In this document: in pieces, positions 8,572 through 32,000 of the stretch | Position numbering within the stretch: position 1 is the first letter of the stretch | How the letters are laid out: every line of letters starts with the position of its first letter | Assembly (NCBI GenBank): GCA_963843975.1 | Contig: CAWJMG010000001.1 | Location: 1,080,001-1,112,000, forward strand | From: an uncultured Actinomycetes bacterium | GTDB taxonomy: Bacteria; Actinomycetota; Actinomycetes; S36-B12; CAIYMF01 | Direction of reading: 5' to 3' | Length of the DNA stretch: 32,000 nucleotides | The notes under the pieces: generated by a model | Database searches by the model: none | Seen by the model: the letters and a program-made list of their open reading frames with translations, nothing else | Told to the model about the DNA's origin: nothing | Translations under genes and position numbers: made by a program

Positions 8572-8847
8572 TCAGACGACGTCGTCGCGGACCTCGGTCG
8601 TGACGACGTTGCGCGAGGTCTGCGGCGTCCCATCGGGCGCGACGGAGCCGTAGGGCACGCCAGTCTCGATGACCTGGCGACGTCGCCGCGGGGCGAAGAC
8701 GAGAAGAGTCATCAGGAGGCCGAGGACTCCGGCGCCCATCAGGATCCAGCCGACCACGTGGATGTCCACGCCGGCGACCTTCGCGTCCACCGCGAACGCC
8801 AGGATCGCGCCGACCGCCATCAGGAAGATGCTTGCTCCGATACCCAT
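8572..8847 (-). CDS. Small two-TM membrane protein (DUF6458-like, tentative)
   Basis: 91 aa. MGIGASIFLMAVGAILAFAV ... VVGWILMGAGVLGLLMTLLVF. GAGAGGGG RBS. Confidence 0.6.
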   Translation of the reverse strand: MGIGASIFLMAVGAILAFAVDAKVAGVDIHVVGWILMGAGVLGLLMTLLVFAPRRRRQVIETGVPYGSVAPDGTPQTSRNVVTTEVRDDVV

Positions 8848-8898
8848 GTCAGACCCCTCTCGGACGTGCTCCGGCGCGCTCGCGCCGAGGCACAGGTC

Positions 8899-9832
8899 CT
8901 ACCCGGCTGCGACCGGCTCAACCGCCGCCACGTGGTCGAGCTGGCGGATCTCCGGGGACTTCTGAGGGACGCAGACCGTGACCGACGCCGGGTGGACGTC
9001 GATGCGCAGCTTCTTGGTCGGCGGTCGGTCACCGCCGTCGATCTCGTAGGCGAGCTTCTTCTTCAGGGTGACGCGGATCCGGTGTCCGCTCGTCACGTCG
9101 ATGAACGGCGACTTCTCGGCGCGATCGACCACGACGCGCGTGACCGCGCGGGTCCACTCCACCGGCGTGCTGGCGGAGACCACCCCGACCTCGAGCACCC
9201 CGTCCTCGGGGCTGGCGCCGTCGAAGGCCTCGATGCCTGCGAACACCTTCGCCACATTGCCGACGAGCACGCACGAGAGCTGCCCCTCGTAGAACACGGT
9301 CCCGTCCACCTTCACCTTTCCCTGCACCTGCGCGGCGCTGATGTTGCGCAGCCCGGTCCAGAGATAGGCAGCACGGCCGATGCGGTCCTTCAGGCCGCGG
9401 TCGGCGTCCTTGATCATGAGGGCGTCGAATCCGGCGCCGGCCATCACGGCGAAGTGCTCGCCGTTGCAGACACCGGTGTCGAGCGCCTGCCGGTCTCCGT
9501 GCAGGGCGACGGCCACCGCCTCTGGCACGGTCGTCGGCACGTCGAGGTTCGTGGCCAGCAGGTTGCCGGTGCCGGCGGGGAGGATTCCCAGGGGGACGTC
9601 GGTTCCCGCAAGGACCTCGATGCACCGCTGCTGCATGCCGTCGCCGCCCCACGCGAGCACGACCTCGGCGCCCTTCTTCAGGGCCTTGCGCACCGCCTTC
9701 GGCGCGTACTTGCTCTTTGGCACCTCGTACCAGAGCACGTCGACGTCCTCCCGCGAGAGGACGTCGCGGAGCCTCGGGCAGCCCGCCACCGAACGTCTTG
9801 CCTGCGTGCGCGACCACGGCGACCTTGGTCAT
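8899..9832 (-). pseudogene. Diacylglycerol-kinase-like lipid kinase (DAGK catalytic domain, YegS/LCB5 type), apparent +1 frameshift near 9769-9775
   Basis: The N-terminus MTKVAVVAHAGKTFGGGLPE is in the 9832 frame, whose ATG forms an ATGA overlap with the PAP2 stop. The rest (LRDVLSREDVDVLWYEV...WGGDGMQQ...GILPAGTGNLLA) is in the 9789 frame. Removing one base from GAGGCTC on the coding strand restores GGGLPELRDVL. Confidence 0.75.
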
Positions 9833-10578
9833 CGGGGAACCTCTCGATGGGCCGGCGCTACGCCGACGGACGGTGTGACGGGTGGACCCAGGACGGGCGT
9901 GGGCGGGGCGTCACCCGGCCACCAGGTGAGCTGGGCCGCGCGACCCAGGACCAGCAGCGACGGGACGAACAGCCAGGCGGCGAGGACGTCCGTGGGCCAG
10001 TGGACGCCGAGCCACACGCGCGACCAGCCGACCCCCAGGGCCCACAGCGCGGCGACGACCCACACCGCGGTCTGCGCAGACCGGCTCGTCACGACGCGGG
10101 TGACTGCCCAGGCGAGCAGAAGGGCGGCGACGGTGGCGGCCGTGGTGTGGCCGGACGGGAACGACGGGCCGCCCGCGGCACCGGCCCAGGAGTCGGGCAC
10201 CGGCCGCTCACGGCCGACGAGCTGGTTCATGGTGAGACCGAGCACGATCCCTCCACCGGCCAGCAGGCCCATGCCGACCGCGGCGCGGCCACGGCCCCAG
10301 CGGCGGGTCACCGACTCGACGAGGACGACGCCGACCACGGCCAGCGGCACGGCGACGTCCACCTGGCCGAGGACGCTGACGGCGTTGGCGACGTCGATCG
10401 TCTCCGGGGTGCGGGTCTGCACGGCCCAGTCGTGCAGTGCGCTGTCGAGGGCCGGCAGCTCCGGCGCGCTGGTACGTACCCACGCGAGCAGGCCCACCCA
10501 CCCAGCAGTGAGTCCGGCACCGAGCAGCCAGGCTGCCCGCGCACCGCGTCGCACCACCTGCGGGTCCGTCGTCGCCAT
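9829..10578 (-). CDS. PAP2 superfamily phosphatase (membrane lipid phosphate phosphatase)
   Basis: 249 aa from MATTDPQ. Motifs VGRERP, FPSGHTT and SRVWLGVHWPTD match the PAP2 pattern (PSGH, SR-x5-H-x3-D). The listed 608-aa ORF is a GC-driven upstream extension. Confidence 0.8.
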   Translation of the reverse strand: MATTDPQVVRRGARAAWLLGAGLTAGWVGLLAWVRTSAPELPALDSALHDWAVQTRTPETIDVANAVSVLGQVDVAVPLAVVGVVLVESVTRRWGRGRAAVGMGLLAGGGIVLGLTMNQLVGRERPVPDSWAGAAGGPSFPSGHTTAATVAALLLAWAVTRVVTSRSAQTAVWVVAALWALGVGWSRVWLGVHWPTDVLAAWLFVPSLLVLGRAAQLTWWPGDAPPTPVLGPPVTPSVGVAPAHREVPR

Positions 10579-10650
10579 CCGTGCTGTCTTCCCCGCGCGT
10601 GGTCTCTTCAACCCTCGGCGGCTCTGCCGCATCGCACTAGGCTCGGCGGC

Positions 10651-11559
10651 GTGAGCACGTGGGACGCAGTCGTCGCGTCGCGGTCGTCGTACGAGCTCGG
10701 CGAGGGCCCGGTCTGGGACCCGGACCGCGCGATCCTGCGCTGGGTCGACATCCTCGGCGGCCGCGTGCATGTGGGCACGCTGGACGACGGGGGCGGCGTG
10801 CACGAGCAGGCGTCCTTCTCCCCGGCCCACGCGCCGGCGACGCTGAGCGCCGTCGCGGCCCCCGCGTTCCTGGACCACGAGCCCGGCACGCTCGTCGCGG
10901 CACACGACCGCGTGGTCTTCATCGACGTCGACGGCGGCGAGCACGTCATCGCCGTCCTGTGCGAGGGCGAGCCCCGACGACTCAACGACGGCGTCACGGA
11001 CCCGGTGGGCCGCTACCTCGTGGGCTCCGCGCCGATGGGCGAGCGGACGTTCTCCGAGCGCCTGTGGCTCGTCGACCACGACGGCACGGTCACGCTGCTC
11101 GACGACGACCTCGGGCTCTCCAACGGCCTCGCTTTCTCTGCCGACGGCGGCACGCTCTACAGCGTGGACACGTTCAGCCATGTCGTGCGCACCCGCCCGT
11201 ACGACGTCGCCACGGGCGCCGTGGGTGCGCGCACAGACTTCGTGCGCGTCGAAGACGGCTACCCGGACGGCATCGCGCTCGACGCGGACGGCTACCTCTG
11301 GGTGGCGGTGTTCGGCCAGGGCGAGGTTCGTCGCTTCGACCGCGACGGGACGCTGGTCGACGTCGTGCGCACGCCGGGAGCCCCGCAGGCGACCAACGTC
11401 GCGTTCGCGGGCCAGGACCTTCTCACGCTCGTGATCACCACTGCCCGCGAGGACATGACCGACCAGGACGTCGCCGACCATCCGCGGTCGGGCAGGCTGT
11501 TCACCACGCGCGTGGACGTGCCGGGCCTGCCGGCCCGTCCGTGGCGCGGCACGACCTGA
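10651..11559 (+). CDS. SMP-30/gluconolactonase/LRE family protein (sugar lactonase)
   Basis: GTG start, 302 aa. YELGEGPVWD, NDGVTDPVGRYLVGS, SNGLAFSADGGTLYSVDT and PDGIALDADGYLWVAVFGQGEVRRFD propeller blocks. Confidence 0.8.
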   Translation: MSTWDAVVASRSSYELGEGPVWDPDRAILRWVDILGGRVHVGTLDDGGGVHEQASFSPAHAPATLSAVAAPAFLDHEPGTLVAAHDRVVFIDVDGGEHVIAVLCEGEPRRLNDGVTDPVGRYLVGSAPMGERTFSERLWLVDHDGTVTLLDDDLGLSNGLAFSADGGTLYSVDTFSHVVRTRPYDVATGAVGARTDFVRVEDGYPDGIALDADGYLWVAVFGQGEVRRFDRDGTLVDVVRTPGAPQATNVAFAGQDLLTLVITTAREDMTDQDVADHPRSGRLFTTRVDVPGLPARPWRGTT

Positions 11560-11590
11560 CCACGCCTCACATCGACTAGGACGAGATCCC

Positions 11591-12452
11591 ATGAAGCTCA
11601 TCCGCATCGGGGCCGCCGGCGCCGAGAAGCCCGCAGCCCTCGTGTCCGACGGCACCTACGTCGACCTCTCCGACGAGGTCCGCGACTTCGACGAGGCGTT
11701 CTTCGGCAGCGGCGGCATCGAGCGGGTGCGCGGCCTCGTGTCCGAGCGCACCGCCGCGGGCGACGTGCACCAGCTCGGCGACCAGCGCCTCGGTGCGCCG
11801 TTCGCACGGCCGCACCAGATCCTCTGCATCGGCCTCAACTACAGCGACCACGCCGCCGAGACCGGTCAGGCGGTGCCCGACGAGCCGATCCTGTTCACCA
11901 AGTCGCCCAACACCCTCATCGGGCCGGATGACGACGTCCTCATCCCGCGCGGCGCGACCAAGCCCGACTGGGAGGTGGAGCTGGGCATCGTCATCGGCCG
12001 TCGCACGAGCTACCTCGACTCGGTCGAGGAGGCGCGCGACGTCATCGCCGGCTACTGCGTCGTCAACGACGTGAGCGAACGCGCGTTCCAGATGGAGCGC
12101 GGCGGCCAGTGGAGCAAGGGCAAGAGCTGCCGAGACCTTCAACCCTGCCGGTCCGTGGCTCGTCACGCCGGACGAGATCGACGACGTGCTCGCGCTCGAC
12201 ATGTGGCTCGACGTCAGCGGCGTACGCCGGCAGACGGGCACGACGGCGACGATGATCTTCGACCCGTACTTCCTGGTGCACTACCTCTCGCAGTTCCTCG
12301 TGCTCGAGCCCGGCGACCTCATCAACACGGGCACGCCTCCGGGCGTCGGCCTGGGCTTCAAGCCGCCGGTATGGCTGCAGCCCGGCGACGTCATGGAGCT
12401 CGGCATCACGGGCCTCGGCGCCCAGCGGCAGAACGTGCTCGCACCTCGATGA
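11591..12452 (+). pseudogene. Fumarylacetoacetate hydrolase (FAH) family protein, apparent +1 frameshift near 12124-12131
   Basis: The N-terminal 180 aa (…ILCIGLNYSDHAAE…DWEVELGIVIG…GYCVVNDVSERAFQ…QWSKGKS) are in frame 2. The C-terminus (ETFNPAGPWLVTPDEIDDV…GDLINTGTPPGVG…GITGLG) is in frame 0. Skipping one base rejoins them. Confidence 0.8.
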
Positions 12453-13480
12453 GCCGCACCATGCGCGCCTTCGTGGTCACCGCTCCGGGGGAGACGGGCG
12501 TGCAGGAGGTCGAGGCGCCCGTGGCCGCGCCGGGCGAGGTGGTGGTCGACGTCGAGCGCGTCGGCGTCTGCGGCACAGACGTCGAGTTCTTCACCGGCGA
12601 GATGCAGTACCTGCACGACGGGTTCGCGCACTTCCCGCTCCGCCTCGGCCACGAGTGGTGCGGCACGGTCGAATCCGTGGGCGAGGGCGTGGACGAGCGC
12701 TGGATCGGACGCCGCGTCACCGGCGACACGATGCTCGGGTGCGGTCGCTGCTACCGCTGCCTGCGCGGCGACCAGCACGTGTGCGAGCACCGAAGCGAGG
12801 TCGGCATCCGCAACGGCCGCGCCGGTGCACTGGCCGATCAGCTCGCCGTGCCGGTCACCTCGCTTCACGGCCTGCCCGACGCCGTCGACGTCGTCGCGGG
12901 TGCGCTCGTGGAGCCGGGCGGCAACGCGCTGCGGGCCGCCCAGGGCGCGCGCCTCTCGCCAGGAGACCGCGTGCTGATCCTCGGCCCGGGGACGATCGGC
13001 CTGCTCGTCGCGATGTTCGCGCGGGCTGACGGCGCCGAGGTGCACCTCATGGGCCACTCCGCGCGCACCCTTGACTTCGCCCGCTCGATCGGCTTCGAGA
13101 ACGCCTGGACCGAGGCCGAGATCCCCTCTCTCCCATGGGATGCTGTCATCGATGCGAGCAACGCCGCGTACCTGCCTGCCAAGGCGCTCGAGCTGGTCGA
13201 GCCGAGCAAGCGGGTCGTCTACATCGGCCTCGCCGGAAGCCACAGCCATGTCGACAGCCGCACCATCGCGCTGAAGGACGTCACCGCTGTCGGCGTTCTG
13301 TCGGCGTCCCCCGGCCTCGCCGGGACGATCGAGGCGTACGCGTCGGGCGCCGTCGACCCGCGGCCCATCGTGGCTGCGACCGTCGGGCTCGACGGCGTGG
13401 CCGACGTGCTGGCCGGGCACCGTCCGGACGGCGCGGGCGCTGGACCGAAGATCCACGTGGACCCGAGGAAGCGAGACTGA
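12449..13480 (+). CDS. Zinc-binding medium-chain alcohol/polyol dehydrogenase
   Basis: 343 aa. GVCGTDVEF, GHEWCGTV, structural-zinc loop GCGRCYRCLRGDQHVC, and GPGTIGLL Rossmann motif. ATGA overlap with the FAH stop. Confidence 0.85.
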   Translation: MSRTMRAFVVTAPGETGVQEVEAPVAAPGEVVVDVERVGVCGTDVEFFTGEMQYLHDGFAHFPLRLGHEWCGTVESVGEGVDERWIGRRVTGDTMLGCGRCYRCLRGDQHVCEHRSEVGIRNGRAGALADQLAVPVTSLHGLPDAVDVVAGALVEPGGNALRAAQGARLSPGDRVLILGPGTIGLLVAMFARADGAEVHLMGHSARTLDFARSIGFENAWTEAEIPSLPWDAVIDASNAAYLPAKALELVEPSKRVVYIGLAGSHSHVDSRTIALKDVTAVGVLSASPGLAGTIEAYASGAVDPRPIVAATVGLDGVADVLAGHRPDGAGAGPKIHVDPRKRD

Positions 13481-13481
13481 C

Positions 13482-14223
13482 ATGGCCGAGTTCGACGGGA
13501 TCGCCGCGATCGTGACCGGTGGTGCGAGCGGGCTCGGCGCCGCGACGGCTGCGCTGCTCGTCGAGCGCGGCGCCAAGGTGGCCGTGCTCGACCTCAGCAC
13601 CGAGACGGCGCCGCCCGGCACGGTGCCGATCACCTGCGACGTGTCGGACTCCGCCTCGGTCGAGGCCGCCGTGCACGCCGCGGCCTTCGAGCCTCGGCGG
13701 CATCGATGTCGTCGTCAACAACGCCGGCATCGGCGCGGGCGGCGACGTCGCGGCGAACGGCGACGACGAGTGGCACAAGGTGCTCGACGTGAACGTGGTG
13801 GGCATGGCGCGCGTCGCGCGGGCCGCGCTGCCGTACCTGCGCGAGTCGAAGCACCCCGCGATCGTGAACACGAGCTCGGTCGTCGCCGTGGTCGGCGTCA
13901 AGAACCGCGCGCTCTACAGCGCCAGCAAGGGCGCGGTCCTCGCGATGACCCTCGCGATGGCCGCAGACCATGTGGGAGAAGGCATCCGCGTCAACGCCGT
14001 CGCGCCCGGCACCGCCGACACCCCCTGGGTCGCACGGCTGCTCGACGAGGCCGACGACCCGGCCGCCATGGGCGAGGCCCTCCGACGACGTCAGCCGATG
14101 GGACGCCTCGTGAGCCCCGACGAGGTCGCGCACGCGATCGCCTACCTAGCGAGCCCCCTGTCGGCCAGCACCACCGGGACGGTCCTGGGAGTAGACGGCG
14201 GCATGGCCGGACTCCGGGTCTGA
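13482..14223 (+). pseudogene. SDR family oxidoreductase, apparent +1 frameshift near 13689-13695
   Basis: TGGASGLG N-terminus in frame 0. GGIDVVVNNAGI ... YSASKGAV ... PGTADTP in frame 1. Removing one C from GAGCCTC gives AAAFELGGIDVVVNNAG. Confidence 0.8.
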
Positions 14224-14245
14224 CCGCGGATACCGCGAGCTCCTA

Positions 14246-14274
14246 CCGATCTCGAGCGCTGTCAGCGAGATCGG
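14246..14274 (+). terminator. Hairpin after the SDR gene (9-bp stem, 11-nt loop)
   Basis: CCGATCTCG (14246-14254) pairs with CGAGATCGG (14266-14274). Confidence 0.4.
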
Positions 14275-14288
14275 CGATCCCTTGCTTC

Positions 14289-14317
14289 TTGACAATGGGA
14301 AGATATCTTCCCATTCT
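14289..14317 (+). promoter_or_regulatory. Predicted promoter (TTGACA, 17 nt, CATTCT) with an embedded perfect 22-bp palindrome AATGGGAAGATATCTTCCCATT; candidate PadR auto-operator
   Basis: TTGACA at 14289-14294. The palindrome at 14294-14315 fills the spacer. The -10-like hexamer is at 14312-14317. The ATG at 14324 is 7 nt after the -10, which implies a leaderless mRNA. Confidence 0.6.
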
Positions 14318-14323
14318 TTCCCC

Positions 14324-14674
14324 ATGGCCCGCCGACGCTTCGACCAGCTGCTGCCGCTCGAAGTGGCGATCCTCGAGGCGGGGCTCGCCCTGACCCGCGA
14401 CGGCAGCGAGTTCCACGGCTTCGCGCTCGCGGCGGCGATGGCGGATGTCGAGGGATCTCGACGGCTCACAGCCCACGGCACCCTCTACAAGGCGCTCGGC
14501 CGCATGGCCGAGCGCGGCCTCCTCACGGCCCGCTGGGAGGAGTCGTCGATCGCCGACGCCGAGGGGCGGCCCCGACGTCGTCTCTACCGCGTCACCGGCG
14601 CGGGCGAGGCGGACCTCGTACGGAGCAGCCGGCCCACCGCGCCCGTCGCAGCGGCCCGGGTGGCGACGACATGA
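14324..14674 (+). CDS. PadR family transcriptional regulator
   Basis: 116 aa from MARRRF. Winged-helix block HGFALAAAMADV...AHGTLYKALGRMAERGLLTARWEE...RRRLYRVTGAGE. Confidence 0.8.
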   Translation: MARRRFDQLLPLEVAILEAGLALTRDGSEFHGFALAAAMADVEGSRRLTAHGTLYKALGRMAERGLLTARWEESSIADAEGRPRRRLYRVTGAGEADLVRSSRPTAPVAAARVATT

Positions 14675-15324
14675 CACCCGCGCCCGGCGAACGAGCTGCC
14701 GGCCTCGTCCTGCGGTGGTGCGGTCTCTACACGCGGGGGCTCCCTGCTCCCGTCGCGGCGGACCGGCGCGACGAGCTCCTCTCCGACCTGCACGACCACC
14801 GCGCGGCGGCCAGGGCCGCCGGCCGGTCCACGATCGGGCGCGACGTCGCAGCCCGCGCACTCCTCGGCGTTCCTGCTGACCTCTCCTGGCGCACCCACCA
14901 GCTGCGGATCGCCCGATCCGCACGGGAACCGGAGGTCACCATGAGTGCACGAACATCGCTCGATGGCTGGAGCCGTACCGCCTACGCCCTTGGTTCCACA
15001 GTCGCCCTGTGGTGCGCGGTCGTGGGCGTCGGCATGCTCCTCGACGCCGGCGACGCCGCTGCCGGGAGCGAGGACTACACCTGGCGGATCTGGCTGGGCG
15101 GCACCGGGCTCGTCATGCTCGCCCTCAGCATCCACGGCCTCCTCGGCCTCCGCACGCACCCGACCCGCGCGTCGGTGGAGCTCGCCGTGGCAGCCATGGT
15201 GACCACCGTCTGGATGTTGTGGGCTGCGCCGGTCGTGCTCGCGGGCGTGGCTCTCATGGCCTTCTTCGCGGCGTACGCCGTCCGCAGCCGCTCGGCAAGG
15301 CGCCGCGAGGCCGTCCCTGCCTGA
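14671..15324 (+). CDS. PadR-associated membrane protein (cytoplasmic helical N-domain plus about 4 TM helices)
   Basis: 217 aa. ATGA overlap with the padR stop. N-terminus RWCGLYTRGLPAPVAADRRDELLSDLHDH, followed by hydrophobic helices. Confidence 0.6.
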   Translation: MTPAPGERAAGLVLRWCGLYTRGLPAPVAADRRDELLSDLHDHRAAARAAGRSTIGRDVAARALLGVPADLSWRTHQLRIARSAREPEVTMSARTSLDGWSRTAYALGSTVALWCAVVGVGMLLDAGDAAAGSEDYTWRIWLGGTGLVMLALSIHGLLGLRTHPTRASVELAVAAMVTTVWMLWAAPVVLAGVALMAFFAAYAVRSRSARRREAVPA

Positions 15325-15334
15325 CACCGACCGG

Positions 15335-15374
15335 GCGGGAGCCGCGGAACCTCGCCAGGAGAGGCGGCTCCCGC
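15335..15374. terminator. Bidirectional hairpin between convergent genes (11-bp stem)
   Basis: GCGGGAGCCGC (15335-15345) pairs with GCGGCTCCCGC (15364-15374). Confidence 0.5.
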
Positions 15375-15389
15375 TCGCCCTCGCGCCGC

Positions 15390-17063
15390 TCAGTGAGGGG
15401 TGCGGGAGAGGTGGCGGCGGGCGTGCTCGATCGCCTCGGGGGTCGACGCGAACACGTGCGCCTGGTGGGCTAGGTGCTCGTAGACGCCGAGGGTGGCGAA
15501 CACGGTGTTGTGCTCGTCGCGGATTCCGCTGAGCAGCACGGTGATCCCGCGCCCCTCGAGGTCGCGGATGGTCTGGCCGAGCACGGTCGCCCCGGTGGCG
15601 TCGAGCGTCTGCACCCGACCGAGCCGCAGGATCACGACGCGTACGTCGCCCACCTCCGACAGCTCGAGCAGGAAGCGGTGGGCCGCACCGAAGAACAGCG
15701 GGCCGTCGAGGCGGTAGGCCACGACGTGCTCGTCGAGGAGCGCACGCTCTGCGTCGCTGTGGTCGCTCGTGTCGAGCGGCGTCTCATCGAGGTGGGCGGA
15801 CCGCGAGACCTGCTGCAGCGCATACAGACCCGCGACCACGAGCCCGACGATGACGGCGGTGACGAGGTCGAACACCACGGTCGCGACCGCGGTGGCGACG
15901 AGCACCAGGGCGTCGCCACGCGTCGCGCGCATGAGGGCTCGGAGGTTCGACACCTCGACCATCTGCACGACGGTCGCGATCAGCACGCCGGCGAGCGCCG
16001 CGAGCGGAATGTGCCCGACCCACGGAGCGGCGACGAGCATCACGACGAGCAGGGCGACGGCGTGCGTGGCAGACGCCAGGCGCGAGCGGGCGCCGCTGCG
16101 CACGTTGACCGCCGTACGCGCGATGGCCGCCGTCGCCGGGACGCCGCCGAAGATCGGCGCGACGAGGTTGGCGAAGCCCTGGCCGAACAGCTCGCGGTCG
16201 GAGTCGTGCCGCTCGCCGACGCTCATGCCGTCGGCGACCGTGGCCGAGAGCAGGCTCTCGAGCGCTGCCAGTGCGGCGACGGCGAGAGCGGGGACGACGA
16301 GCGAGCTGCGCTGGCCCCAGGCGACGCTGGGCAGCGCCGGCGCCGGGAAGCCGGTGGGGATCACGCCGATCGTCTCGGCGGGAAGGCTGAAGTAGGAGAC
16401 CGCGAGCGTCGCCACGATCACGGCAGGCAGCGACACCGGCAGGCCGGGCTTGAACCGGATAGCGAGCAGCATGCTGATCGCCACGAACGCGGCTACGAGC
16501 ACAGGCGCCCACTGCGGCGCCTCGAACCACAGCCGCACCGCCTCGATCGCGCGGCCGAGGACCTTCTCGCCCTCGACACTCACGCCGAGCGCGGACGGCA
16601 CCTGCTGGAGTCCGATGATCACGGCGATCCCGAGCGTGAAGCCCTCGACGACCGGCAGGGGCACGAACTGCATCCAGCGACCGGCACCGATGAGCGCCAG
16701 CACGATCAGGAAGACGCCGGCGAGCAGGCCGACGACGAGGACGGCGCTGGTGCCGAACTGCGCGACGATCGGCAGCAGCACCACGGTCATCGCACCCGTG
16801 GGCCCGCTCACCTGCAGGTTGCTCCCCCCGAGGAGAGCGGCGACGAGGCCTGCGACCACGGCGGTCACGAGCCCGGCACCCGCACCCAGGCCGGACGCGA
16901 CCCCGAACGCGAGGGCGAGGGGCAGCGCCACCACCGCGACGGTCAGGCCGGCGATGAGATCGCGCTTGGGGTCCCGTCGCATGGCCCGGTAGTCCGCGGC
17001 CTGGGGCAGGAGCGCGCGCACACGGGACAGGACCGCGGCGGCACCGGCGTGGTCGGTGCTCAC
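15390..17063 (-). CDS. SulP family inorganic anion transporter with C-terminal STAS domain
   Basis: 557 aa from the GTG at 17063. DLIAGLTVAVVALPLALAFG N-terminal signature, many TM helices, and a STAS block (YRLDGPLFFGAA...ILRLGRVQTLDATGA). Confidence 0.85.
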   Translation of the reverse strand: MSTDHAGAAAVLSRVRALLPQAADYRAMRRDPKRDLIAGLTVAVVALPLALAFGVASGLGAGAGLVTAVVAGLVAALLGGSNLQVSGPTGAMTVVLLPIVAQFGTSAVLVVGLLAGVFLIVLALIGAGRWMQFVPLPVVEGFTLGIAVIIGLQQVPSALGVSVEGEKVLGRAIEAVRLWFEAPQWAPVLVAAFVAISMLLAIRFKPGLPVSLPAVIVATLAVSYFSLPAETIGVIPTGFPAPALPSVAWGQRSSLVVPALAVAALAALESLLSATVADGMSVGERHDSDRELFGQGFANLVAPIFGGVPATAAIARTAVNVRSGARSRLASATHAVALLVVMLVAAPWVGHIPLAALAGVLIATVVQMVEVSNLRALMRATRGDALVLVATAVATVVFDLVTAVIVGLVVAGLYALQQVSRSAHLDETPLDTSDHSDAERALLDEHVVAYRLDGPLFFGAAHRFLLELSEVGDVRVVILRLGRVQTLDATGATVLGQTIRDLEGRGITVLLSGIRDEHNTVFATLGVYEHLAHQAHVFASTPEAIEHARRHLSRTPH

Positions 17064-17401
17064 GAGACCTTGCGCCGTCCCGCCTTCAGCTCCTTGCGGA
17101 GCCCGGCCTGGTCGTCGATCACGTCGAGCAGGATCGTCCGCGCGGCGAGCAGCAGGTCGCGCGTCTCCGGTGCGGTGATCGCGTAGAACACCTGGCCGTC
17201 GCGGCGGTGCTGGGCGACGAGACCGGTGCGGCGCAGCGCCGCGAGCTGGTGCGAGAGGTTGCTCGGCTCGATCTCGATCTCGGCGAGCAGCTCGTGGACG
17301 GCGTAGTCGCGCTCGGAGAGCAGCTCGAGGACCCGGATCCGCGCGGGGTGGCCGAGTGTGCGGAAGAACTCGGCCTTGGCCTCGTACAGCGGCTTCGTCA
17401 T
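17060..17401 (-). CDS. ArsR/SmtB family transcriptional regulator
   Basis: 113 aa. FFRTLGHPARIRVLELL...HELLAEIEIEPSNLSHQLAALRRTGLV. Its TGA overlaps the SulP GTG start (GTGA). Confidence 0.85.
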   Translation of the reverse strand: MTKPLYEAKAEFFRTLGHPARIRVLELLSERDYAVHELLAEIEIEPSNLSHQLAALRRTGLVAQHRRDGQVFYAITAPETRDLLLAARTILLDVIDDQAGLRKELKAGRRKVS

Positions 17402-17445
17402 CGGACCTCCGTGTCGTCGGAAGCGACATTAGCACTTGAACAACT

Positions 17446-17459
17446 GTTCATGCTTTCGC
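17446..17459. promoter_or_regulatory. TGAACA-AC-TGTTCA inverted repeat; candidate ArsR/SmtB operator
   Basis: Perfect 6-2-6 palindrome 45-58 nt upstream of the arsR-like ATG. It overlaps an AT-richer stretch with TAATGT on the minus strand. Confidence 0.5.
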
Positions 17460-17503
17460 ATCGAAGGCTCCTCCCCGGGGAGGGCCCGCTGACACCTCCC
17501 CGC

Positions 17504-17523
17504 ATGACCGGTCATCCGGATGA
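17504..17523. promoter_or_regulatory. Composite symmetric element ATGA-CCGG-TCAT-CCGG-ATGA (two overlapping perfect 12-bp palindromes)
   Basis: Both ATGACCGGTCAT (17504-17515) and TCATCCGGATGA (17512-17523) are perfect palindromes. Confidence 0.35.
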
Positions 17524-17528
17524 CGCAC

Positions 17529-17546
17529 ATTGACTACCTTCCGTGA
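17529..17546 (+). repeat. Direct repeat copy 1: ATTGACTACCTTCCGTGA
   Basis: 16 of 18 identical to copy 2, which lies 107 bp downstream. Confidence 0.5.
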
Positions 17547-17635
17547 TGGCTCCCTCTCTTTCTGCTCACCATAGGCGAGGAAGGGTCCCCTTATTCATCC
17601 GATCGAGGGATGACATCGGGGCTCCGACGCCCGAG

Positions 17636-17653
17636 ATTGACTACCTACGGTGA
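17636..17653 (+). repeat. Direct repeat copy 2: ATTGACTACCTACGGTGA, 30 nt upstream of the response-regulator start
   Basis: Shares ATTGACTACCT-x-C-x-GTGA with copy 1. Contains a TTGACT -35-like hexamer. Confidence 0.5.
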
Positions 17654-17682
17654 ACCACCACCGCCGGTACTGAGGGGTACCT

Positions 17683-18348
17683 ATGACGTGGATCCTGGTC
17701 ATCGACGACGAGCCGGGGATCGTCAGGTTCGTGAGTCGCGCGCTGATCGCCGCCGGCTACGACGTCGAGACAGCAAGCAACGGTGTCGACGGGCTGCGCC
17801 GCGCCTCCGAGCAGCGGTTCGACCTGATCACCCTCGACCTGCGCCTTCCGGGGCTGGGCGGGATGGCCGTGCTGACGGCGCTGATGGAGCAGGACCCGGG
17901 CAACCGCGTCCTCGTGCTCTCGGCGGCCGAGGGCGTGCAGGAGCGGGTCCGGTGCCTCGAGAGCGGTGCCGCAGACTTCCTGGCCAAGCCGTTCGCGGTG
18001 GCCGAGCTGCTCGCACGCATCAAGTCGCGGCTCCCTGCACCGACCGGCCAGCCCGCCGCCCCGACCATCGAGACGGGTCGCGTGCAGCTCGACCCACACC
18101 GGCGGACGGTGACCGCCGACGGGCGGGTCATCGAGCTGTCGGCGCGGGAGTACCGCGTCCTCGTCCACCTCATGACCCGGGCCGACCGGGCGTGCTCACG
18201 CCAGGAGCTGCTGTCCGAGGTCTGGGGGCTCGCCTTCGACCCAGGCAGCAACGTCGTGGACGTATGCGTCGCACGCCTGCGCGCGAAGCTTGCCGGGGCT
18301 CACATCCAGACGGTGCGCAATGTCGGTTATGCCTTCGTCTCGGCGTGA
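17683..18348 (+). CDS. OmpR/PhoB-family two-component response regulator
   Basis: 221 aa. Receiver domain (VIDDEPG, LITLDLRLPG, AKPF) and winged-helix output (LSAREYRVLVHLM...VRNVGYAF). Confidence 0.9.
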   Translation: MTWILVIDDEPGIVRFVSRALIAAGYDVETASNGVDGLRRASEQRFDLITLDLRLPGLGGMAVLTALMEQDPGNRVLVLSAAEGVQERVRCLESGAADFLAKPFAVAELLARIKSRLPAPTGQPAAPTIETGRVQLDPHRRTVTADGRVIELSAREYRVLVHLMTRADRACSRQELLSEVWGLAFDPGSNVVDVCVARLRAKLAGAHIQTVRNVGYAFVSA

Positions 18349-19399: not shown

Positions 19400-19513
19400 G
19401 GCAGCCGCCTGCTCGCATCGCATCGCATCGCCCGTCGGTCATGGATCGACGGGCTATATCGCATGGGGCAGTTGGTGACTCGCCGACTCGCCCAGGAGTG
19501 GATGACAGACGCA

Positions 19514-19527
19514 TGACAGAGCTGTCA
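19514..19527. promoter_or_regulatory. Palindrome TGACAG-AG-CTGTCA upstream of the giant secreted-protein gene
   Basis: Perfect 6-2-6 inverted repeat. ATGACAGA is also directly repeated at 19502-19509 and 19513-19520. It lies about 85-98 nt upstream of the ATG at 19612. Confidence 0.4.
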
Positions 19528-19611
19528 CGTACGCGGAAGACCGCGTGAAGCCACCTACGTTCGCCACCACTGGCCGGAATCCGCGGCCAGCCCGGCCTAC
19601 CTGGGGGCGAC

Positions 19612-24999: not shown

Positions 25000-26327
25000 G
25001 CGACATGCAGAACGACTCGGACGGCTCGTCGTCGCCGCTGCTCGGTCGTCGGGCGCTGCTGCGCGGCGGTGCGGTGCTCGCCGCAGGCGCGGCGACGGGA
25101 GGCTGGCTCCTCAGCCGTGGTGCGGCCGACGCCGCGATCGTGCGCAACGCGGTCCCGGCCGTCTACCGCGCGCCCGGCCCGCGCGAGCAGCTGCTGCACC
25201 TTGCGGCGACCGACGGATGGGTGTCCATGCCTGCCGACGCACCGCCGGTCGGGGCCTTCTGGCCGGACACCCTCGCGCCGACGGGCTACAACGTCTACGC
25301 ATTCGGGTTCCGCGACGTCACCGGCATGACCCCCACCCAGGTCCTGGCTCAGAAGGAGCGGGCGCAGATCTCTGCTCCCATCCTCGGGTTCGACCAGTAC
25401 GTGAAGGCGAAGGACAACGCCGTCCGCGTGACGCTGTCGAACCTGGGTCTCGCCGTGCGCCCCGACCTGGTGGACGGCCACACGATCCACTGGCACGGCT
25501 TCACCAACGCCATCCCGCTGTTCGACGGCGTCCCCGAGCTGTCGATCTCCGTGCCGATCGGACGCGACTTCACGTACTACTACCGCCCGCACCTGCCCGG
25601 CACGTACATGTACCACTGCCACTTCGAAGACGTGGAGCACGTGCAGATGGGCATGACCGGAGTCCTGTACGTCCGGCCGGAGCGCAACACCATCAGCCAG
25701 AAGTTCGCGTACGACCACGACGCGACGGCGTACGAGCGGGAGTTCACCTTTATGCTCACCGAGCTCTGGGCCGAGGGTCACTACCGGGACGCGCACATCC
25801 AGACGTCGGACTGGACCGACTACAAGCCGAGCTTCTGGCTCATGAACGGCCGCGCCTACCCCGACACGCTCAAGCCCAACATCAACCCCATGGACTCGAG
25901 GCCGGACACCAACCCGGCGCTGCAGTCGGACTCCGGCGCATCGCTGCGCTACAACCCGATCTCGTCGCTCGTGCGGTGCAACGCCGGCGACCGCGTGCTG
26001 CTGCGCATCGCGAACCTCGGGTACCAGCACCACGCGATGACCCTCGACGGCATCCCGATGAAGGTGGTCGCCAAGGACGCGAGCCCCCTGATCGGAAACG
26101 GTCCGGATCTCACCTACGAGACGAACACCGTCGAGGTCGGCCCCGGTGAGAGCAGGGATGTGATCTTCACGGCTCCTGCAGTCGCGTCCACCACGACCTT
26201 CCGCCTGTACGACCGCAACTACGCCTACCTGAGCAACGCGGGCGCTGCGGGGTACGGCGGTCAGATGACCGAGGTGCGCGTGTCCCCCACAGGGACCTTC
26301 GGCCCCCAGACCGGCCCGAACCAGTGA
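24996..26327 (+). CDS. Two-domain multicopper-oxidase-like protein 1 (Tat signal; domain 1 carries a complete T1 site plus two HxH pairs; domain 2 is ligand-poor)
   Basis: 443 aa. Twin-arginine motif GRRALLRGG. HTIHWHG at 25479-25499. HCHFEDVEHVQMGM at 25614-25655. Second cupredoxin domain has only QHHAMTLDG. ATGA overlap with the giant gene stop. Confidence 0.8.
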   Translation: MSDMQNDSDGSSSPLLGRRALLRGGAVLAAGAATGGWLLSRGAADAAIVRNAVPAVYRAPGPREQLLHLAATDGWVSMPADAPPVGAFWPDTLAPTGYNVYAFGFRDVTGMTPTQVLAQKERAQISAPILGFDQYVKAKDNAVRVTLSNLGLAVRPDLVDGHTIHWHGFTNAIPLFDGVPELSISVPIGRDFTYYYRPHLPGTYMYHCHFEDVEHVQMGMTGVLYVRPERNTISQKFAYDHDATAYEREFTFMLTELWAEGHYRDAHIQTSDWTDYKPSFWLMNGRAYPDTLKPNINPMDSRPDTNPALQSDSGASLRYNPISSLVRCNAGDRVLLRIANLGYQHHAMTLDGIPMKVVAKDASPLIGNGPDLTYETNTVEVGPGESRDVIFTAPAVASTTTFRLYDRNYAYLSNAGAAGYGGQMTEVRVSPTGTFGPQTGPNQ

Positions 26328-26341
26328 GGAGGGCGGCAACC

Positions 26342-27680
26342 ATGCGAGCACTGTCCTGGAGCCCGGCCCGCACCGCGGCGCTCGCCGTGGTCACGATGAC
26401 CACTGCCCTGCTCGTCTCGGCCGGCCTCGCCGGCCAGGCTCAGGCCGCGTCCGACGAGGGCCTCGTGTGCGAGACGAGCGCGACCAACTCGTTCAACCTC
26501 ACCGCGACCAGCGGCTACATCCTCACGCCCGACGGCAACTCCATCTTCATGTGGGGCTATGCCGGTCCGAGCGGGACCTTCCAGCTTCCCCGGGCCGACG
26601 CTCTGCGTCGCCGAGGGCGCGACCGTGACGGTCACGCTGAAGAACCAGCTGCGCGAGCCGGTCTCGATCGTGTTCCCCGGTCTCACCGGTGTGAACGCGG
26701 ACGGGCAGCCCGCGCAGCCGACGTTCGACACGGCGGGGAAGCTCACCTCGCTGACGAAGGCGGCCGCCGCATCAGGCGGGACCGTGACCTACTCCTTCGT
26801 GGCCTCGCGACCGGGCACGTTCCTGTACGAGTCCGGCACCGACGTCGCCAAGCAGGTCCAGATGGGCCTGTACGGAGCCCTCGTCGTCCGCCCGGCGATC
26901 AACGGCACGATCATCGACGGCCAGGCGTACGACGACCCGGCGTCGAAGTTCGACCAGGGCCACGAGTACCTGCACCTGCTGTCGGAGATCGACCCGGCGT
27001 TCCACCTCGCGGTCGAGCGCAACCGGGCCTTCGACCTCGTCAACCTCCGCAGCCGCTACTTCCTCATCAACGGCCGCAGCATGCCGGACACCATCGCGCC
27101 GAACGGCGCTGCCTGGCTGCCGGCGCAGCCGTACGGATCGCTGATCCACATCCTTCCCAAGCCGGCCAACGCCGGCCCCGCGTATCGACCAGCGCTCATC
27201 CGCTACCTCAACGCCGGCACCGGGACGTACCCGTTCCACCCCCACGGCAACGACCAGCGCGTGGTGGGCAAGGACGGCTACGGGCTCATCGCCACCGGGA
27301 GCGGCGACTCCAGCTACGAGAAGTTCCTCATCGACATCGGCCCGGGCCAGACCGTCGACACCACGCTCGAGTGGAGCAACGAGGAGAACTACGCCCCGGA
27401 CACCGACCCGAACGACGGCGTCAACACCGACATCCCTGTCGACCTTCCAGCTCTCAACGACCAGATCATCACGCCGGACACGTGGTTCAGCGAGAGCCCC
27501 TACCTCGGGTTCACCGCCGACCTGCCGCCGAACGTGACGTCCAACAACCAGTGCGGCGAGTACTACCACGTGGCCCACAGCCACGCGCTGCAGCAGGCAA
27601 CGAACTACGGCGCGACCTTCGGCGGGATGATGACCCTCATCCGCATCGACCCGCCGGCCGGCTGCCCGGTGACGCCATGA
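26342..27680 (+). pseudogene. Two-domain multicopper-oxidase-like protein 2 (Sec signal; domain 1 ligand-less; domain 2 keeps HPH and HSH pairs but has lost the T1 His and Cys), apparent +1 frameshift near 26582-26591
   Basis: GAGGAGGG RBS and ATG at 26342. Signal ...AGLAGQAQA. The N-terminal 83 codons are in frame 2 (…GTFQLP) and the remainder in frame 0 (GPTLCVAEGATVTVTL…). YPFHPHG (His-Pro-His-Gly at 27237-27248) and HVAHSH at 27567-27584. Confidence 0.8.
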
Positions 27681-30408
27681 GCAACGGGACCGAGAGCGGG
27701 ACGACCATGAACTCACGACAGCGCTCGAGCCGTGCCCTGGCCATCGTGGCCGGCGGATCGCTCCTCCTCGCAGGGGTTGCCGCGGTGCCGCCGATCGCCG
27801 CCGCCCAGGCCGGTGCTGCGGCGCCGGCCCGGGTCGCGGCGGCAGTGCACCCCGCAGCAGTGCTCGTGCCGAGCACGGGAACTGCCTGCGTGGCCGGCAC
27901 CGGCACGCGGGTGTGCGACCTGTGGGCGCGCACCGGCGTGAACGCGGGGCCGGGTGCGCTCACCGGCGTCTCGTTCTGGAGCTACACCAGTGCAGCTGCC
28001 GACCCCGTCGGCACCACCGGGCCGACGCTCGTCGTGCAGCAGGGGGAGAGCGTCACGCTCCGGCTGCACAACCGGCTCGGCACGGGGCGCATCACGTCGC
28101 TCGCGATGCCGCAGGTCGACAGCTTCACCGAGGACACCACGGGCGTCGCGGACCTCGCCGACAAGGACTACACGTTCACGGCCACGCGTCCGGGCACGTA
28201 CCTCTACGAGGCCGGCGGCACGACCGACGGCGCGCGCCAGACCGCGCTGGGCATGGTCGGCGCCCTGGTCGTCGTGCCCACCGCCGCGCCGACCACCTAC
28301 ACGGACGAGGCCGTCGCTCTGCTCACCGACGTCGACCCCGGGCTGCACGCCAACCCGGCGACGTACGACATGCGCAACTACAACCCCCGCGTCCACCTCG
28401 TCAACGGCGCGACGTTCCCGTCGACGACGAACCTCCCCGTCACGGCAGGCAGCAACGCGTTGCTGCGCGTCGTGAACGGCGGAGTCGTCCAGCACGCGAT
28501 CGGCATCCTCGGGACGAACCAGAGGGTCGTCGCCGTCTCCTCCCGCACCCTCAGCCACCCGTACGGCGTGGCGGCCGAGAACGTCGCCGCCGGTGACACG
28601 CTCGACCTGCTCGTGTCGGTCCCGGCCGCCACGACCGCCGGGCTGAAGTACGCCGTGTACGACGCCTCCACGAGGCTCGACAGCAGCACGGGGGCCGCGA
28701 CCGGCATCGTGCCGTTCGGCGGAGCGCTGACGTTCCTCGACACCGGCTCGGCCGTCGCGACGAGCCCGGGGCCGAGCATCACCGGCCTCGTCGTCACCCC
28801 GGCCCGGTCCAACGGCTCGGCGTCGCTCACCTTCACGGGCACCGCCGGGATCACCGGCGACCCCGCGGTCACCGGCCTCGAGTACGTCGTGGACAACGGC
28901 GCGATCGCGACCGGATCGGGCACGGCGGTCGCGGGGGGCACCGGTCCCGTGACCGGCACCTTCTCGGCCACCGGTCTCGCCACCGGGTCGCACACGCTGC
29001 TGCTCCGCGCGAACAGCGCCGCGGGCTGGGGACCGTTCGCGGCCGCCACGTTCGTGGTCGACCGCACCGGCCCCGTCGCCTCGGGCGTCGGACTCAGCAG
29101 GCCGTCGGTCGGGAAGCTCGACGGTCTCGACCTCCGTCACGGTCAGCGCGAGCGCCTCGGACAGCACCACGGGCGGCAGCAACGTGACCGCGGCGACGTA
29201 CTCGATCGACGGAGGGCCGACTCAGCCGCTGACGCTCGCCCCCGGGCCGGCGGTCACGGTCTCGCTGAGCGGGACGATCGCGAAGTCCGTCGTCGACGGG
29301 CTCCTCGAGGGCAAGCACACGATCTCCGTGGTCGCGTCCGACCAGTTCGCCAACGTGGGCACTGCGGCGACCGCGGTGCTCCTCGTGGACCGCACCACCC
29401 CGACCGTCTCGGGTGTCACGGTGAGCCCGTCGCCGAACAACGGCGCCCAGGGCACACCTGCCGACCCGACCTCGGTCGAGGTCCGGGCGTCGTTCGCCGA
29501 CGCCTCCGCGGGCACAGCGCCCGGCGGCCCTGCTGCCAGCGGGGTCGTGTCCGGCGAGGGCTTCCTCGGCGGGACCACCGCGGGCACTCCGGGCACCGGG
29601 TTCCTGCTGACGCCCTACCCGACGGGCAGCCCCACCCAGCTGCTCGGCACCTTCCCGGTCTCGGAGCTCACGAGGTTCCCCGACGGACCGCTGACGGTGT
29701 GGGTGCGGGCCAAGGACGCCGCAGGCAACTGGGGCACCGCGGTCGCAGGCACGCTGGTCATCCAGCGCGACGCGATCTTCGCCAGCGCGTTCGACAGCCC
29801 GACGACGCTCGTCCCACCGTGGTCGAGCCAGGTTACGTCGAGCGGCCTCACCGTCGCGAACGCCGTGTCCGGCACGTCGCGCCAGCTGGTCGTCACCCGC
29901 TCGGGGTCGTTCTCGAACAACTCTCGCGGCTACGTCGTGACGACGGCACCGTCGGCCGAGACGAAGTACAAGGCGGCGTTCCAGTTCACGCCGGGCACCC
30001 TCACCACGGGCTCGTCGACCAACAACGCCCGCATCCTCACCATCTTCGCGGCAAGGACGGGGGCGGGGACGAACGCGCTCACCGTGCAGTACCGGTCCTT
30101 CGGTACGTCGCGTCAGGTGCGGATGCAGGTGGCCACGGCGACCGGGGCGAAGCTCGACCGCCTGGACGACGCTCGCCACGGGCAACGGCCCGGTCACCCT
30201 GCACCTCACGTGGGTGTCGGCGGCCTCGGCCACGGCGACGTTCACGATCGGCAGCACCGCGGTGCCGTCGCTCACCGGGCTGAACACGAGCGGCAACACC
30301 ATCGAGACGGCCTGGCTCGGCGTCTCTGCGTCGTCCGGCAGCGGGACGGTCTCGACCGGATCGCTCGCCTTCGACAACTTCGACTCGCGGCGCACCACCG
30401 CCCCGTGA
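27677..30408 (+). pseudogene. Cupredoxin-pair protein 3: signal peptide, two ligand-less MCO-like cupredoxin domains, Ig-like repeats and a C-terminal beta-sandwich-like domain; two apparent +1 frameshifts (about 29113 and about 30149)
   Basis: ATGA overlap with the protein 2 stop. GPTLVVQQGESVTLRLHN, PGTYLYEAGG...ALGMVGALVVVP and VNGATFP...LLRVVNGG are paralogous to proteins 1 and 2. VDRTGPVASGV / VDRTTPTVSGV Ig-like repeat starts. The reading frame moves 2 to 0 to 1, ending at TGA 30406-30408. Confidence 0.75.
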
Positions 30409-30425
30409 CCGACAAGGAGAACCCG

Positions 30426-30902
30426 ATGGCCACCACCGAAGGTCGCGGCACCAACCCGTTCCGGCGGCACGCCCGCGCGCTTGCCGCCGCGACAGGGCTC
30501 GCGCTCTGCCTCGGCATCGCCGGCGCCGTAGCTGCCGAGGCGGGCAAGCGCCCGACCCGGCCGTCCATGCCGGTCAGCAGCGAGGTCGAGACGAACGCGG
30601 GGGTCCGCGTCATCCGGGCCAGCCTCGCAGCCGACGGCGGACTGCTCGACGTGCGGTACGTCGTCCTCAACGCGCCGCGGGCGCAGAAGTGGATGGCGGA
30701 CACCTCCCAGCCTCCGGCGCTGTACGACCAGAGGAACAAGGCCACGATCGCCCGCGTCGCGCCTATGCGTGACGCGCACCAGCAGCGGCCGGGTCAGACC
30801 TACTACCTCGTCTACCAGAACGTTCGGAACACGATCCACCGCGGAGACCGGATCGACCTGACCGTGGCCGGCGTGACCCTGCACGACATCCCGGTGGAGT
30901 GA
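30426..30902 (+). CDS. Small secreted or membrane-anchored hypothetical protein (158 aa)
   Basis: AAGGAGA RBS. N-terminal FRRHARALAAATGLALCLGIAGAVAA hydrophobic segment. Family not recognised. Confidence 0.6.
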   Translation: MATTEGRGTNPFRRHARALAAATGLALCLGIAGAVAAEAGKRPTRPSMPVSSEVETNAGVRVIRASLAADGGLLDVRYVVLNAPRAQKWMADTSQPPALYDQRNKATIARVAPMRDAHQQRPGQTYYLVYQNVRNTIHRGDRIDLTVAGVTLHDIPVE

Positions 30903-30910
30903 GAGCGACC

Positions 30911-32000
30911 ATGTCCGCACGTCGCGCCTGGGCGCGCCTCAGCCTCGCGGCGGCTGCCGTCGTCGTGGGTCTGACGCTGTCAGCCGCTCCCGCGTCGGCC
31001 CACGCCGTCCTCATCGGGAGCAACCCGGCGGACGGGTCGAGCCTCGACTCTGCTCCCCAGGAGCTCGTCCTCACCTTCGACGAGGCGGTCACGGTCGAGA
31101 GCACGGTCGTGCACCTGCTCGACGAGTCCGGCCGGACGCTCGAGGTCGGCGCCATCGCCGCCGGCGACGGTTCCGGCGAGGAGGAGGCCGAGGCGATCAG
31201 CGCCCAGCTGCCGCAGCTTCCCGAACGGCCGCTATCTCATCCGGTGGCAGACGATCACGAGCGACGACTTCCACCCGGTCGACGGGTCGCTGACGTTCGG
31301 GGTCGGAACCGGCGTCGGGGTCACGGCTGTCGGCGGCACCAGTGAGCGACCCGTGGGCGATGTCCTCGAGACGCTGACCCGGGGGACGGTCGTGGCCGGC
31401 TACATGCTCGCTGTCGGTGCCCTGGCACTCCTTCTGCTCGCGCACCCGCTGCTCGCCGCGCGTCCCATCGCGCTGCGCTTCGTGGTGCGGGCCTGCATGG
31501 TCGGCGTCGTCACGTCGATCGGAGGCCTCGCCCTGCTCGCGGCGCTGCTGACCCTCGACACCGGTGCGGCTCCGCCGACGTCGTTCCTCCTCTACTGGGG
31601 CGCTGCGGCGGCCGGGCTGCTCGTCCTCGGCATCAACGCGAGCGCCATCGACCGGCTGCACGGCACCCGCGCGCCCCGTCCGGCAGCAGCCGCGACGGCA
31701 GTGCTCGCGGCGCTCGCAACCGCTTGGGGCGTCGGCCATCTCGGGCACGGCGGTGCTGCCGCAGGCTCGGCGCTGTCCACCGTGCACGTCGCCGCGACCG
31801 CCGTGTGGGCGGGCGGCGTCGCCCTGCTCGTCCCCCTGGCCTTCTTCGCCGGGCGCGACGGTCAGAGCGGCTGGGCCCGCGACGTCATCAAGCGGTTCGG
31901 GCGCCTCGCGGTGCCGGCACTCGCGCTGTCGATCATGAGCGGTGCGCTGCTCGCCCGCGGACTCGTCCCCACCTGGGGTGGCCTCACCGAGACCGCGTAC
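30911..32000 (+). pseudogene. CopC-CopD fusion copper transport/resistance protein (YcnJ-like), apparent +1 frameshift near 31214-31223; 3' end runs off the window
   Basis: Signal ...SAAPASA followed by HAVLIGSNPADGSSLDSAPQELVLTFDEAV (CopC N-terminal His motif). After the shift, NGRYLIRWQTITSDDFHPVDGSLTFGV (CopC end), then multiple TM helices with VHVAATAVWAGGV (CopD-like). The frame stays open to position 32000. Confidence 0.8.

Follow-up and report, generated by a model that had tools for sequence, protein, structure and literature searches.

Seven single-base frameshifts and the genes that carry them

The window, i.e. the whole stretch of DNA analysed here, comprises 32,000 nt of contig CAWJMG010000001.1 from the assembly GCA_963843975.1 of an uncultured Actinomycetes bacterium. 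It is actinobacterial DNA with a G+C content of 70.5%, and it contains seven frameshifts that are spread over six genes, namely those for a lipid kinase, an FAH-family hydrolase, a short-chain dehydrogenase (SDR), two multicopper-oxidase-like proteins (proteins 2 and 3) and a CopC-CopD fusion (CopCD). The seven strings listed in the initial annotation are all found where it had placed them, and its claim that each gene is restored by skipping one base and that none needs an added base holds true. When one base is removed per site, the six proteins each give a single, approximately full-length Pfam match that spans the repair (DAGK_cat and YegS_C for the lipid kinase, adh_short_C2 with 5.4e-56 for the SDR, and further Cu-oxidase_3 and CopC). 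The approximately 25 remaining genes of the window show complete domain matches without any frame change and without any -1 shift.

The lipid kinase gene (8899-9832, minus strand) reads GAGC[C]TCGG at 9769..9777 (Site A), the bracketed extra C being located at 9772/9773. Its first 20 codons, which encode the N-terminus (MTKVAVVAHAGKTFGGGLPE), are one base out of frame with the remainder, and the repaired kinase has 310 aa. The FAH-family hydrolase gene (11591-12452, plus strand) reads GAGCTGC[C]GAG at 12124..12131 (Site G), with the extra C at 12130/12131. A repair of this gene by deletion of a G, giving GAGCTC, had been suggested before and is wrong: it is a C that has been added to the native GAGCTGCGAG, whose core is GAGCTG (reverse complement CAGCTC), and all five aligned relatives read GAGCTG-CGAG. 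The residue at the junction is Cys in 21 of the 22 closest homologues (KGKS-C-ETFNP) and Ser in the remaining one, and the repaired hydrolase of 286 aa matches FAA_hydrolase with 2.9e-70 over profile positions 2-213 of 214. The native cores of the seven sites are thus GAGCTC in four cases and CAGCTC or GAGCTG in three, and not GAGCTC in five and CAGCTC in two as had been assumed.

All other affected genes lie on the plus strand. The SDR gene (13482-14223) again reads GAGC[C]TCGG at 13689..13697 (Site B), with the extra C at 13692/13693. In the gene for protein 2 (26342-27680), the sequence at 26582..26590 is CAGCT[T]CCCC (Site E) with the extra base at 26587; all close homologues of protein 2 that were examined have FQ(L/M)PGPT with the spacing kept, where the window has one base too many. 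The gene for protein 3 (27677-30408, 909 aa) carries two sites, both reading GA[A]GCTCGAC, at 29113..29122 (Site C, extra A at 29114/29115) and at 30149..30158 (Site D, extra A at 30150/30151). Finally, the CopCD gene, which starts at 30911 and runs off the window, reads CAGCT[T]CCCG at 31214..31222 (Site F), with the extra base at 31218.

The blastx comparison with the open reading frames of syntenic loci places the frame changes at approximately 26580 in protein 2 (frame 2 to 3), at approximately 29110 (2 to 3) and 30150 (3 to 1) in protein 3, and at approximately 31220 in CopCD (2 to 3). The phase of the third-codon-position G+C (GC3) switches at the plus-strand sites, the codon bias downstream of the sites is undisturbed, and neither stop codons nor further lesions were seen. 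Brackets between stop codons were of no use for placing the shifts, since stops are rare at 70% G+C and the brackets span 370-3900 nt.

At each site the consensus doubles an adjacent base, in the forms GAGC[C]TC, GA[A]GCTC, CAGCT[T]C and GAGCTGC[C], and duplication of a neighbour can account for all seven extra bases, as the initial annotation had proposed. Identical native 8-9-mers (GAGCTCGG, GAGCTCGAC and CAGCTCCC, two copies each) appear as identical miscalls.

The same sites in a second assembly and in relatives

Two groups of relatives were available for comparison. Upstream, four JGI metagenome contigs (L044-L047) and one contig from the European Nucleotide Archive (ENA; L048) with 88-90% nucleotide identity are syntenic with window positions 8545-17451, and every gene in them is intact. 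Downstream, positions 25607-32000 are matched at 93.7% identity by Logan contig L052 (run SRR19787815). In these 6.4 kb there are exactly four indels between the two sequences, namely Sites E, C, D and F, and in each case the window has one base more. The orthologue comparison proposed in the initial annotation therefore finds the extra base absent from the relatives (L044-L048 and L052, 88-94% identity) at all seven sites, with the genes intact. At Site A, L048 reads GGAG-CTCGG and L044-L046 read GAAG-CTCAGG, with intact kinases of 304-310 aa. L044-L046 and L048 read GAG-CTCGG (GAGCTCGG) at Site B and encode an intact SDR of 246 aa. In L052, Site E is CAGCT-CCCC with an intact protein of 445 aa, and Site F is CAGC-TCCCG (CAGCTCCCG) with an intact CopCD of 595 aa. 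JGI metagenome contigs were also scanned with patterns across Sites G and E, in two runs that gave no match or unrelated ones only.

The same strain is represented by four Logan contigs of run ERR12037365, which were assembled independently of the window: L051 (window positions 7834-11911), L050 (12300-16119), L053 (16090-20187) and L049 (27555-32000). Their combined coverage of the window is 16,412 nt, with identities of 99.87-99.98%. Differences exist at just seven places, each of them at GAGCTC, CAGCTC or GAGCTG.

Two of the seven extra bases are absent from these contigs. The extra A at 29114 and at 30150 (window GAAGCTCGAC) does not occur in L049 (GAGCTCGAC), and L052 at 29114 also reads GAGCTCGAC. 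Written out around the junction, L049 and L052 have G-AGCTCGAC at Site C; at Site D, L049 has GCG-AGCTCGAC and L052 likewise has no extra base. Protein 3, when repaired, is 100% identical to the intact protein P0121 (909 aa) from the Logan assembly of ERR12037365.

Where the relatives have GAGCTCGG or CAGCTCCCG at Sites A, B and F, each of the two assemblies has an aberrant form of its own. At Site A, L051 has another error at the same place (GAGGCCTCGG, where the window has GAGCCTCGG and L048 has GAGCTCGG), and the lipid kinase from ERR12037365 is likewise frameshifted, being called at 279 aa. At Site B, L050 reads GAGTTCGG against GAGCCTCGG in the window, which is in frame and encodes Phe; this is the sole difference between L050 and the window over 3820 nt. 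At Site F, L049 has CAGCGCTTCCCG against CAGCTTCCCG in the window (31216), an in-frame codon insertion that displaces a Leu conserved in approximately 20 homologues. Since this conserved Leu is replaced, the L049 version of Site F is probably also an error. Protein 3, SDR and CopCD are all encoded intact in the ERR12037365 contigs.

The comparison also revealed a substitution at the same motif. In the SulP permease gene (minus strand), the window has GAGCTG[C]GCTGG at 16303..16314, where GAGCTG[A]GCTGG (reverse complement CCAGCTCAGCTC) is found elsewhere. At position 16309 the window reads GAGCTGCGCTGG and the same-strain contig L053 reads GAGCTGAGCTGG, their sole difference over 4098 nt; all three relatives L044, L048 and L001 have the A. 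The C in the window changes a conserved Leu to Arg within a membrane stretch of the permease, and it is a probable eighth, non-frameshifting error of the window at this motif.

The reverse situation is found at 29664..29675 (plus strand), where a GAGCTC is apparently correct in the window. Here the window agrees with L052 (GAGCTCACGAGG), and L049 (its positions 2109-2120) deviates at 29669 and 29672 by two synonymous C/G swaps beside the GAGCTC (GAGCTGACCAGG). This is probably an error in L049, though it could be a strain variant, and the deviation suggests that the basecalls at the motif are unstable in run ERR12037365. Judged from these sequence comparisons, the frameshifts are almost certainly a property of this assembly and not of the organism.

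Probable motif-bound consensus error and its possible causes

The repaired window contains 109 AGCT tetramers; the positions from -1 to +6 relative to a tetramer form a zone that takes up 2.7% of the sequence. All seven frameshift errors fall inside this zone (p approximately 1e-11, with the zone chosen post hoc). Errors were found at four of the 20 GAGCTC sites, at three of the 48 CAGCTC or GAGCTG sites and at none of the 41 other AGCT sites; all seven are at SAGCTC-containing sites, which make up 83 of the 109. These data cannot separate AGCT from GAGCTC or SAGCTS as the true motif, but a motif restricted to GRGCYC was rejected, as the CAGCTC sites do not fit it. The initial annotation had stressed that six of the sites form three pairs of identical context. 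The strings concerned (GAGCCTCGG, GAAGCTCGAC and CAGCTTCCC) do indeed occur twice each, with both strands counted. The pairing adds little, since three disjoint pairs sharing at least 8 nt arise in 9% of trials with seven random AGCT sites and in 31% of trials with seven random GAGCTC, CAGCTC or GAGCTG sites. Identical pairs are unremarkable because all sites are SAGCTS hexamers; the strongly non-random signal is the location at AGCT cores.

A second line of evidence comes from the sequencing technology. The comparison set consisted of 43 related loci with a conserved gene cluster, 11 of them from nanopore-only metagenome-assembled genomes (MAGs) of the Microflora Danica project and 32 from isolates or other MAG assemblies, several of the latter with short-read-style contig names. 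The 11 Microflora Danica loci contain 31 frameshifts (25 of +1 and six of -1) per 37,503 aligned residues; in the 32 other loci none was found over 96,852 aligned residues. Seven of the 11 are affected (L026, L015, L018, L031, L035, L040 and L042, with the cluster at approximately 10000-21000 in each), and four are free of frameshifts. With +1 shifts at seven sites and -1 shifts at none, the window matches the pattern of the nanopore-only MAG loci and of no others among the 43. In the Microflora Danica pipeline, R10.4.1 reads are assembled by Flye with --meta --nano-hq and polished once with Medaka; short reads are not used for polishing (PMC12313526). Proteins identical to the ADH, PAP2 and response regulator of the window are recorded on a contig of more than 1 Mb, as would fit a long-read source. 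Exact look-ups of the 1795-aa protein and the 443-aa oxidase gave no hit.

We consider it very probable that the seven frameshifts and the missense at 16309 are long-read consensus errors and not mutations of the organism. The assembly behind the window is most probably nanopore-only, of the type produced by Flye with one round of Medaka. The initial annotation had preferred to explain the extra bases by consensus or basecalling errors that recur systematically at some of the GAGCTC-type sites, and had raised the possibility of a related methylase; the same-strain differences, which occur only at the motif, bear the error explanation out. ERR12037365 is read most economically as a set of error-prone long reads, possibly those from which the window itself was assembled, since identical native 8-9-mers give identical miscalls in the window, since the Logan contigs deviate from conserved states, and since Microflora Danica, the one project known to have yielded related nanopore MAGs, has placed its nanopore reads at ENA (BioProject PRJEB58634) and its short reads at NCBI (PMC12313526).

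Under this explanation, errors would strike a subset of AGCT-core hexamers, where the consensus would write the neighbouring base twice, and the k-mer consensus and the polished consensus of the ERR12037365 reads would fail differently at the same sites. A SacI-like (GAGCTC) or AluI-like (AGCT) methyltransferase might modify the motif in this organism, and the altered bases would then perturb the signal from the pore, leaving basecaller and polisher inconsistent at the motif. We lean slightly towards a DNA modification of the GAGCTC/AGCT motif in this organism as the cause. The error pattern is motif-bound, assembly-specific and absent from relatives, with two assemblies that disagree only at the motif, and it looks lineage-specific, as methylation is. 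The recognition sequences of SacI (GAGCTC) and AluI (AGCT) match the affected hexamers, and both enzymes were first found in actinobacteria.

For modifications that the models do not cover, motif-specific and lineage-specific nanopore errors have been documented that persist after Medaka polishing (PMC10687267; PMC11610573; PMC11610603). Known cases are Listeria with GCWGC and GCTGG in the Modpolish study (PMC10687267), a Klebsiella outbreak study (PMC11610573) and strand-specific mismatches (PMC11610603). The errors in the window resemble these modification-mediated errors in several respects: they recur at one short motif that seems specific to the lineage, the basecalling there seems to be inconsistent, as the motif is the only place where the results of two consensus methods part, they would have passed through read-based polishing uncorrected, and the true base is revealed by close relatives. 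A possible case in a high-GC actinobacterium is provided by Propionibacterium freudenreichii, where two strains with 5-methylcytosine (5mC) at GRGCYC show 114-126 differences in native R10.4.1 assemblies and a strain without it shows two (PMC11649196). This motif class (BanII-type) includes GAGCTC, and the strains with the motif have approximately 50-fold more differences. The tie between the methylated motif and these differences is our reading of the published tables and not a claim of the authors, whose paper does not map the errors to the motif (PMC11649196). Unlike in that species, CAGCTC and GAGCTG are also affected in the window; GGGCCC, GAGCCC and GGGCTC are outside our comparison. There is also some resemblance to the homopolymer indels of nanopore and flow-based sequencing, which are single-base length errors with a duplicated neighbour that lead to false frameshifts. 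However, homopolymer indels are mostly deletions in runs of at least 4-5 bases, whereas the runs in the window are 1-3 bases long and tied to an AGCT-core hexamer.

Several points weigh against this explanation. The penetrance at the motif is partial and unexplained: GAGCTC is intact at 16 window positions, which agrees with what the initial annotation had noted, and the very 8-9-mers that are affected occur error-free elsewhere in the window (GAGCTCGG at 10693 and GAGCTCGAC at 21394). The nanopore origin of the window and the sequencing platform of ERR12037365 are both something we infer. In contrast to the SacI and AluI systems, the genes of the window include no recognisable methyltransferase; outside the window, neither a methyltransferase nor a nuclease gene was sought. 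Mismatches predominate among the modification-mediated errors in the literature; of the eight errors here, seven are gene-breaking single-base insertions, a proportion to be read in the light of a detection that favours frameshifts.

The alternative that survives best is an artefact without any DNA modification, i.e. a weakness of basecaller or polisher at GC-rich AGCT k-mers that is worsened by low coverage or strain mixture. We regard it as a possible cause, clearly less probable than a modification. The bias towards +1 shifts is general to nanopore-only MAG loci, whatever their lineage, and the partial penetrance, with identical 8-9-mers intact within the window, fits such a weakness as well. 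In L031, from another and distant lineage, one +1 shift falls in GAGC[C]TCC, resembling Sites A and B, and this hints at a generic k-mer weakness rather than an organism-specific methylation. On the other hand, L048 (ENA ERZ25039524, contig_1400, with a Flye-like record name) has GAGCTCGG at Sites A and B without error, and four of the 11 nanopore MAG loci have no frameshift at all. In the other nanopore MAGs, the +1 shifts were placed by scoring every possible one-base deletion (L040 at 14416 and 16416, L015 at 11834, L035 at 17046, L042 at 14875 and L031 at 11152). The contexts differ between the MAGs, and several of these shifts adjoin GATC, a common methylation motif; with few cases and coarse localisation, this comparison is too imprecise for a conclusion.

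It is unlikely that ERR12037365 consists of accurate short reads whose versions are true, so that the strain would really have a 2-nt insertion in the lipid kinase gene, Phe for Leu in the SDR and an extra CopC codon. Just as unlikely are the heterogeneous window errors that would follow, i.e. a deletion of G, a T replaced by CC, a deletion of GC and insertions of A. The intact protein 3, SDR and CopCD of the Logan contigs are in favour of this reading. It would require that two native sequences (GAGGCCTCGG and GAGTTCGG) yield the same miscall GAGCCTCGG and that CAGCGCTTCCC and CAGCTCCCC both become CAGCTTCCC. Moreover, the Logan kinase is frameshifted and the conserved CopC Leu is lost, positions 29669 and 29672 of L049 depart from both the window and L052, all deviations are on the motif, and the ENA-style ERR accession is consistent with the Microflora Danica nanopore deposit. 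If these were accurate short reads after all, the frameshifts at Sites C and D would be refuted more directly, and the other discrepancies would still be assembly errors, albeit more varied ones.

A variant of the modification hypothesis is that the miscalls mark a modification at GAGCTC/CAGCTC (AGCT core) that differs from the 5mC, N4-methylcytosine (4mC) and N6-methyladenine (6mA) handled by current nanopore models, for instance a bulkier or unusual base. This seems rather improbable to us; the host would be an uncultured Nanopelagicales/Longivirga-like actinobacterium. If true, such an unusual modification would account for the insertion-type errors and for the failure of both consensus methods.

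Real, recent pseudogenising mutations in this strain are very unlikely. It is true that the extra bases stand in the deposited sequence and that six affected genes in 22 kb would suit a decaying genome. Yet two of the seven extra bases are absent from the independent same-strain assembly, which also reads Sites A, B and F differently, and all seven lesions are one-base insertions at one motif class instead of lesions in mixed contexts. The identity of repaired protein 3 with an intact recorded protein, the end-to-end Pfam matches, the undisturbed GC3 without stops or other lesions, and the restriction of frameshifts among the related loci to nanopore-only assemblies all point in the same direction.

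End-joining scars after cleavage at GAGCTC by a SacI- or Ecl136II-type enzyme, as well as programmed +1 frameshift or slippage sites, are improbable in the extreme. One base inserted at a blunt GAG^CTC cut could yield GAGC[C]TC, and Actinobacteria possess Ku/LigD end-joining, which is able to add single nucleotides. However, the insertion point varies (GA^AGCTC, GAGC^CTC, CAGCT^TC and GAGCTGC^C, i.e. after hexamer base 2, 4 or 5, or 1-2 nt outside), three of the seven sites are not GAGCTC and two of the extra bases are missing from the other same-strain assembly, so that the doubts which the initial annotation had itself expressed about such scars are justified. Programmed +1 frameshifting and transcriptional slippage were rejected, as the orthologues (88-94% nucleotide identity) run through all seven sites without a change of frame; since they lack the extra base, nothing is conserved that could serve recoding.

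Implications and neighbouring genes

The finding is a known kind of sequencing artefact and matters little biologically. The lipid kinase, FAH hydrolase, SDR, both multicopper-oxidase-like proteins and CopCD should be treated as intact. In nanopore-only MAGs, clustered +1 'pseudogenes' at one short motif should be taken for consensus errors, which can be repaired from close relatives. As a by-product, the error motif gives a hint of an active GAGCTC/AGCT modification system in the lineage.

A gene arrangement of its own was observed for the FAH hydrolase. In protein P0005 (496 aa), which is encoded on a 786-kb NCBI contig, a gluconolactonase-like SGL domain and an FAH hydrolase domain are present in one protein, and their counterparts in the window are adjacent separate genes (at approximately 10650-11559 and 11591-12452). 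The fusion in P0005 probably results from another frame or stop error in that long contig.

The SulP/STAS permease gene (15393-17066, minus strand) is overlapped at its start by a gene for an ArsR-family regulator (17063-17428). An open frame that extends far upstream suggests a frame change at the start of the permease gene, but this candidate was rejected, as L001 and L044 share the layout.

Window positions 17683-32000 contain the cluster used for the comparison of the 43 loci (L001-L043), which is conserved in many Actinomycetes and in some Chloroflexota. It encodes an OmpR-type response regulator and a histidine kinase as regulators, a protein of 1795 aa with weak SdrD_B and beta-helix matches only, three multicopper-oxidase-like proteins (443, 445 and 909 aa), a protein of 158 aa and the CopC-CopD fusion.

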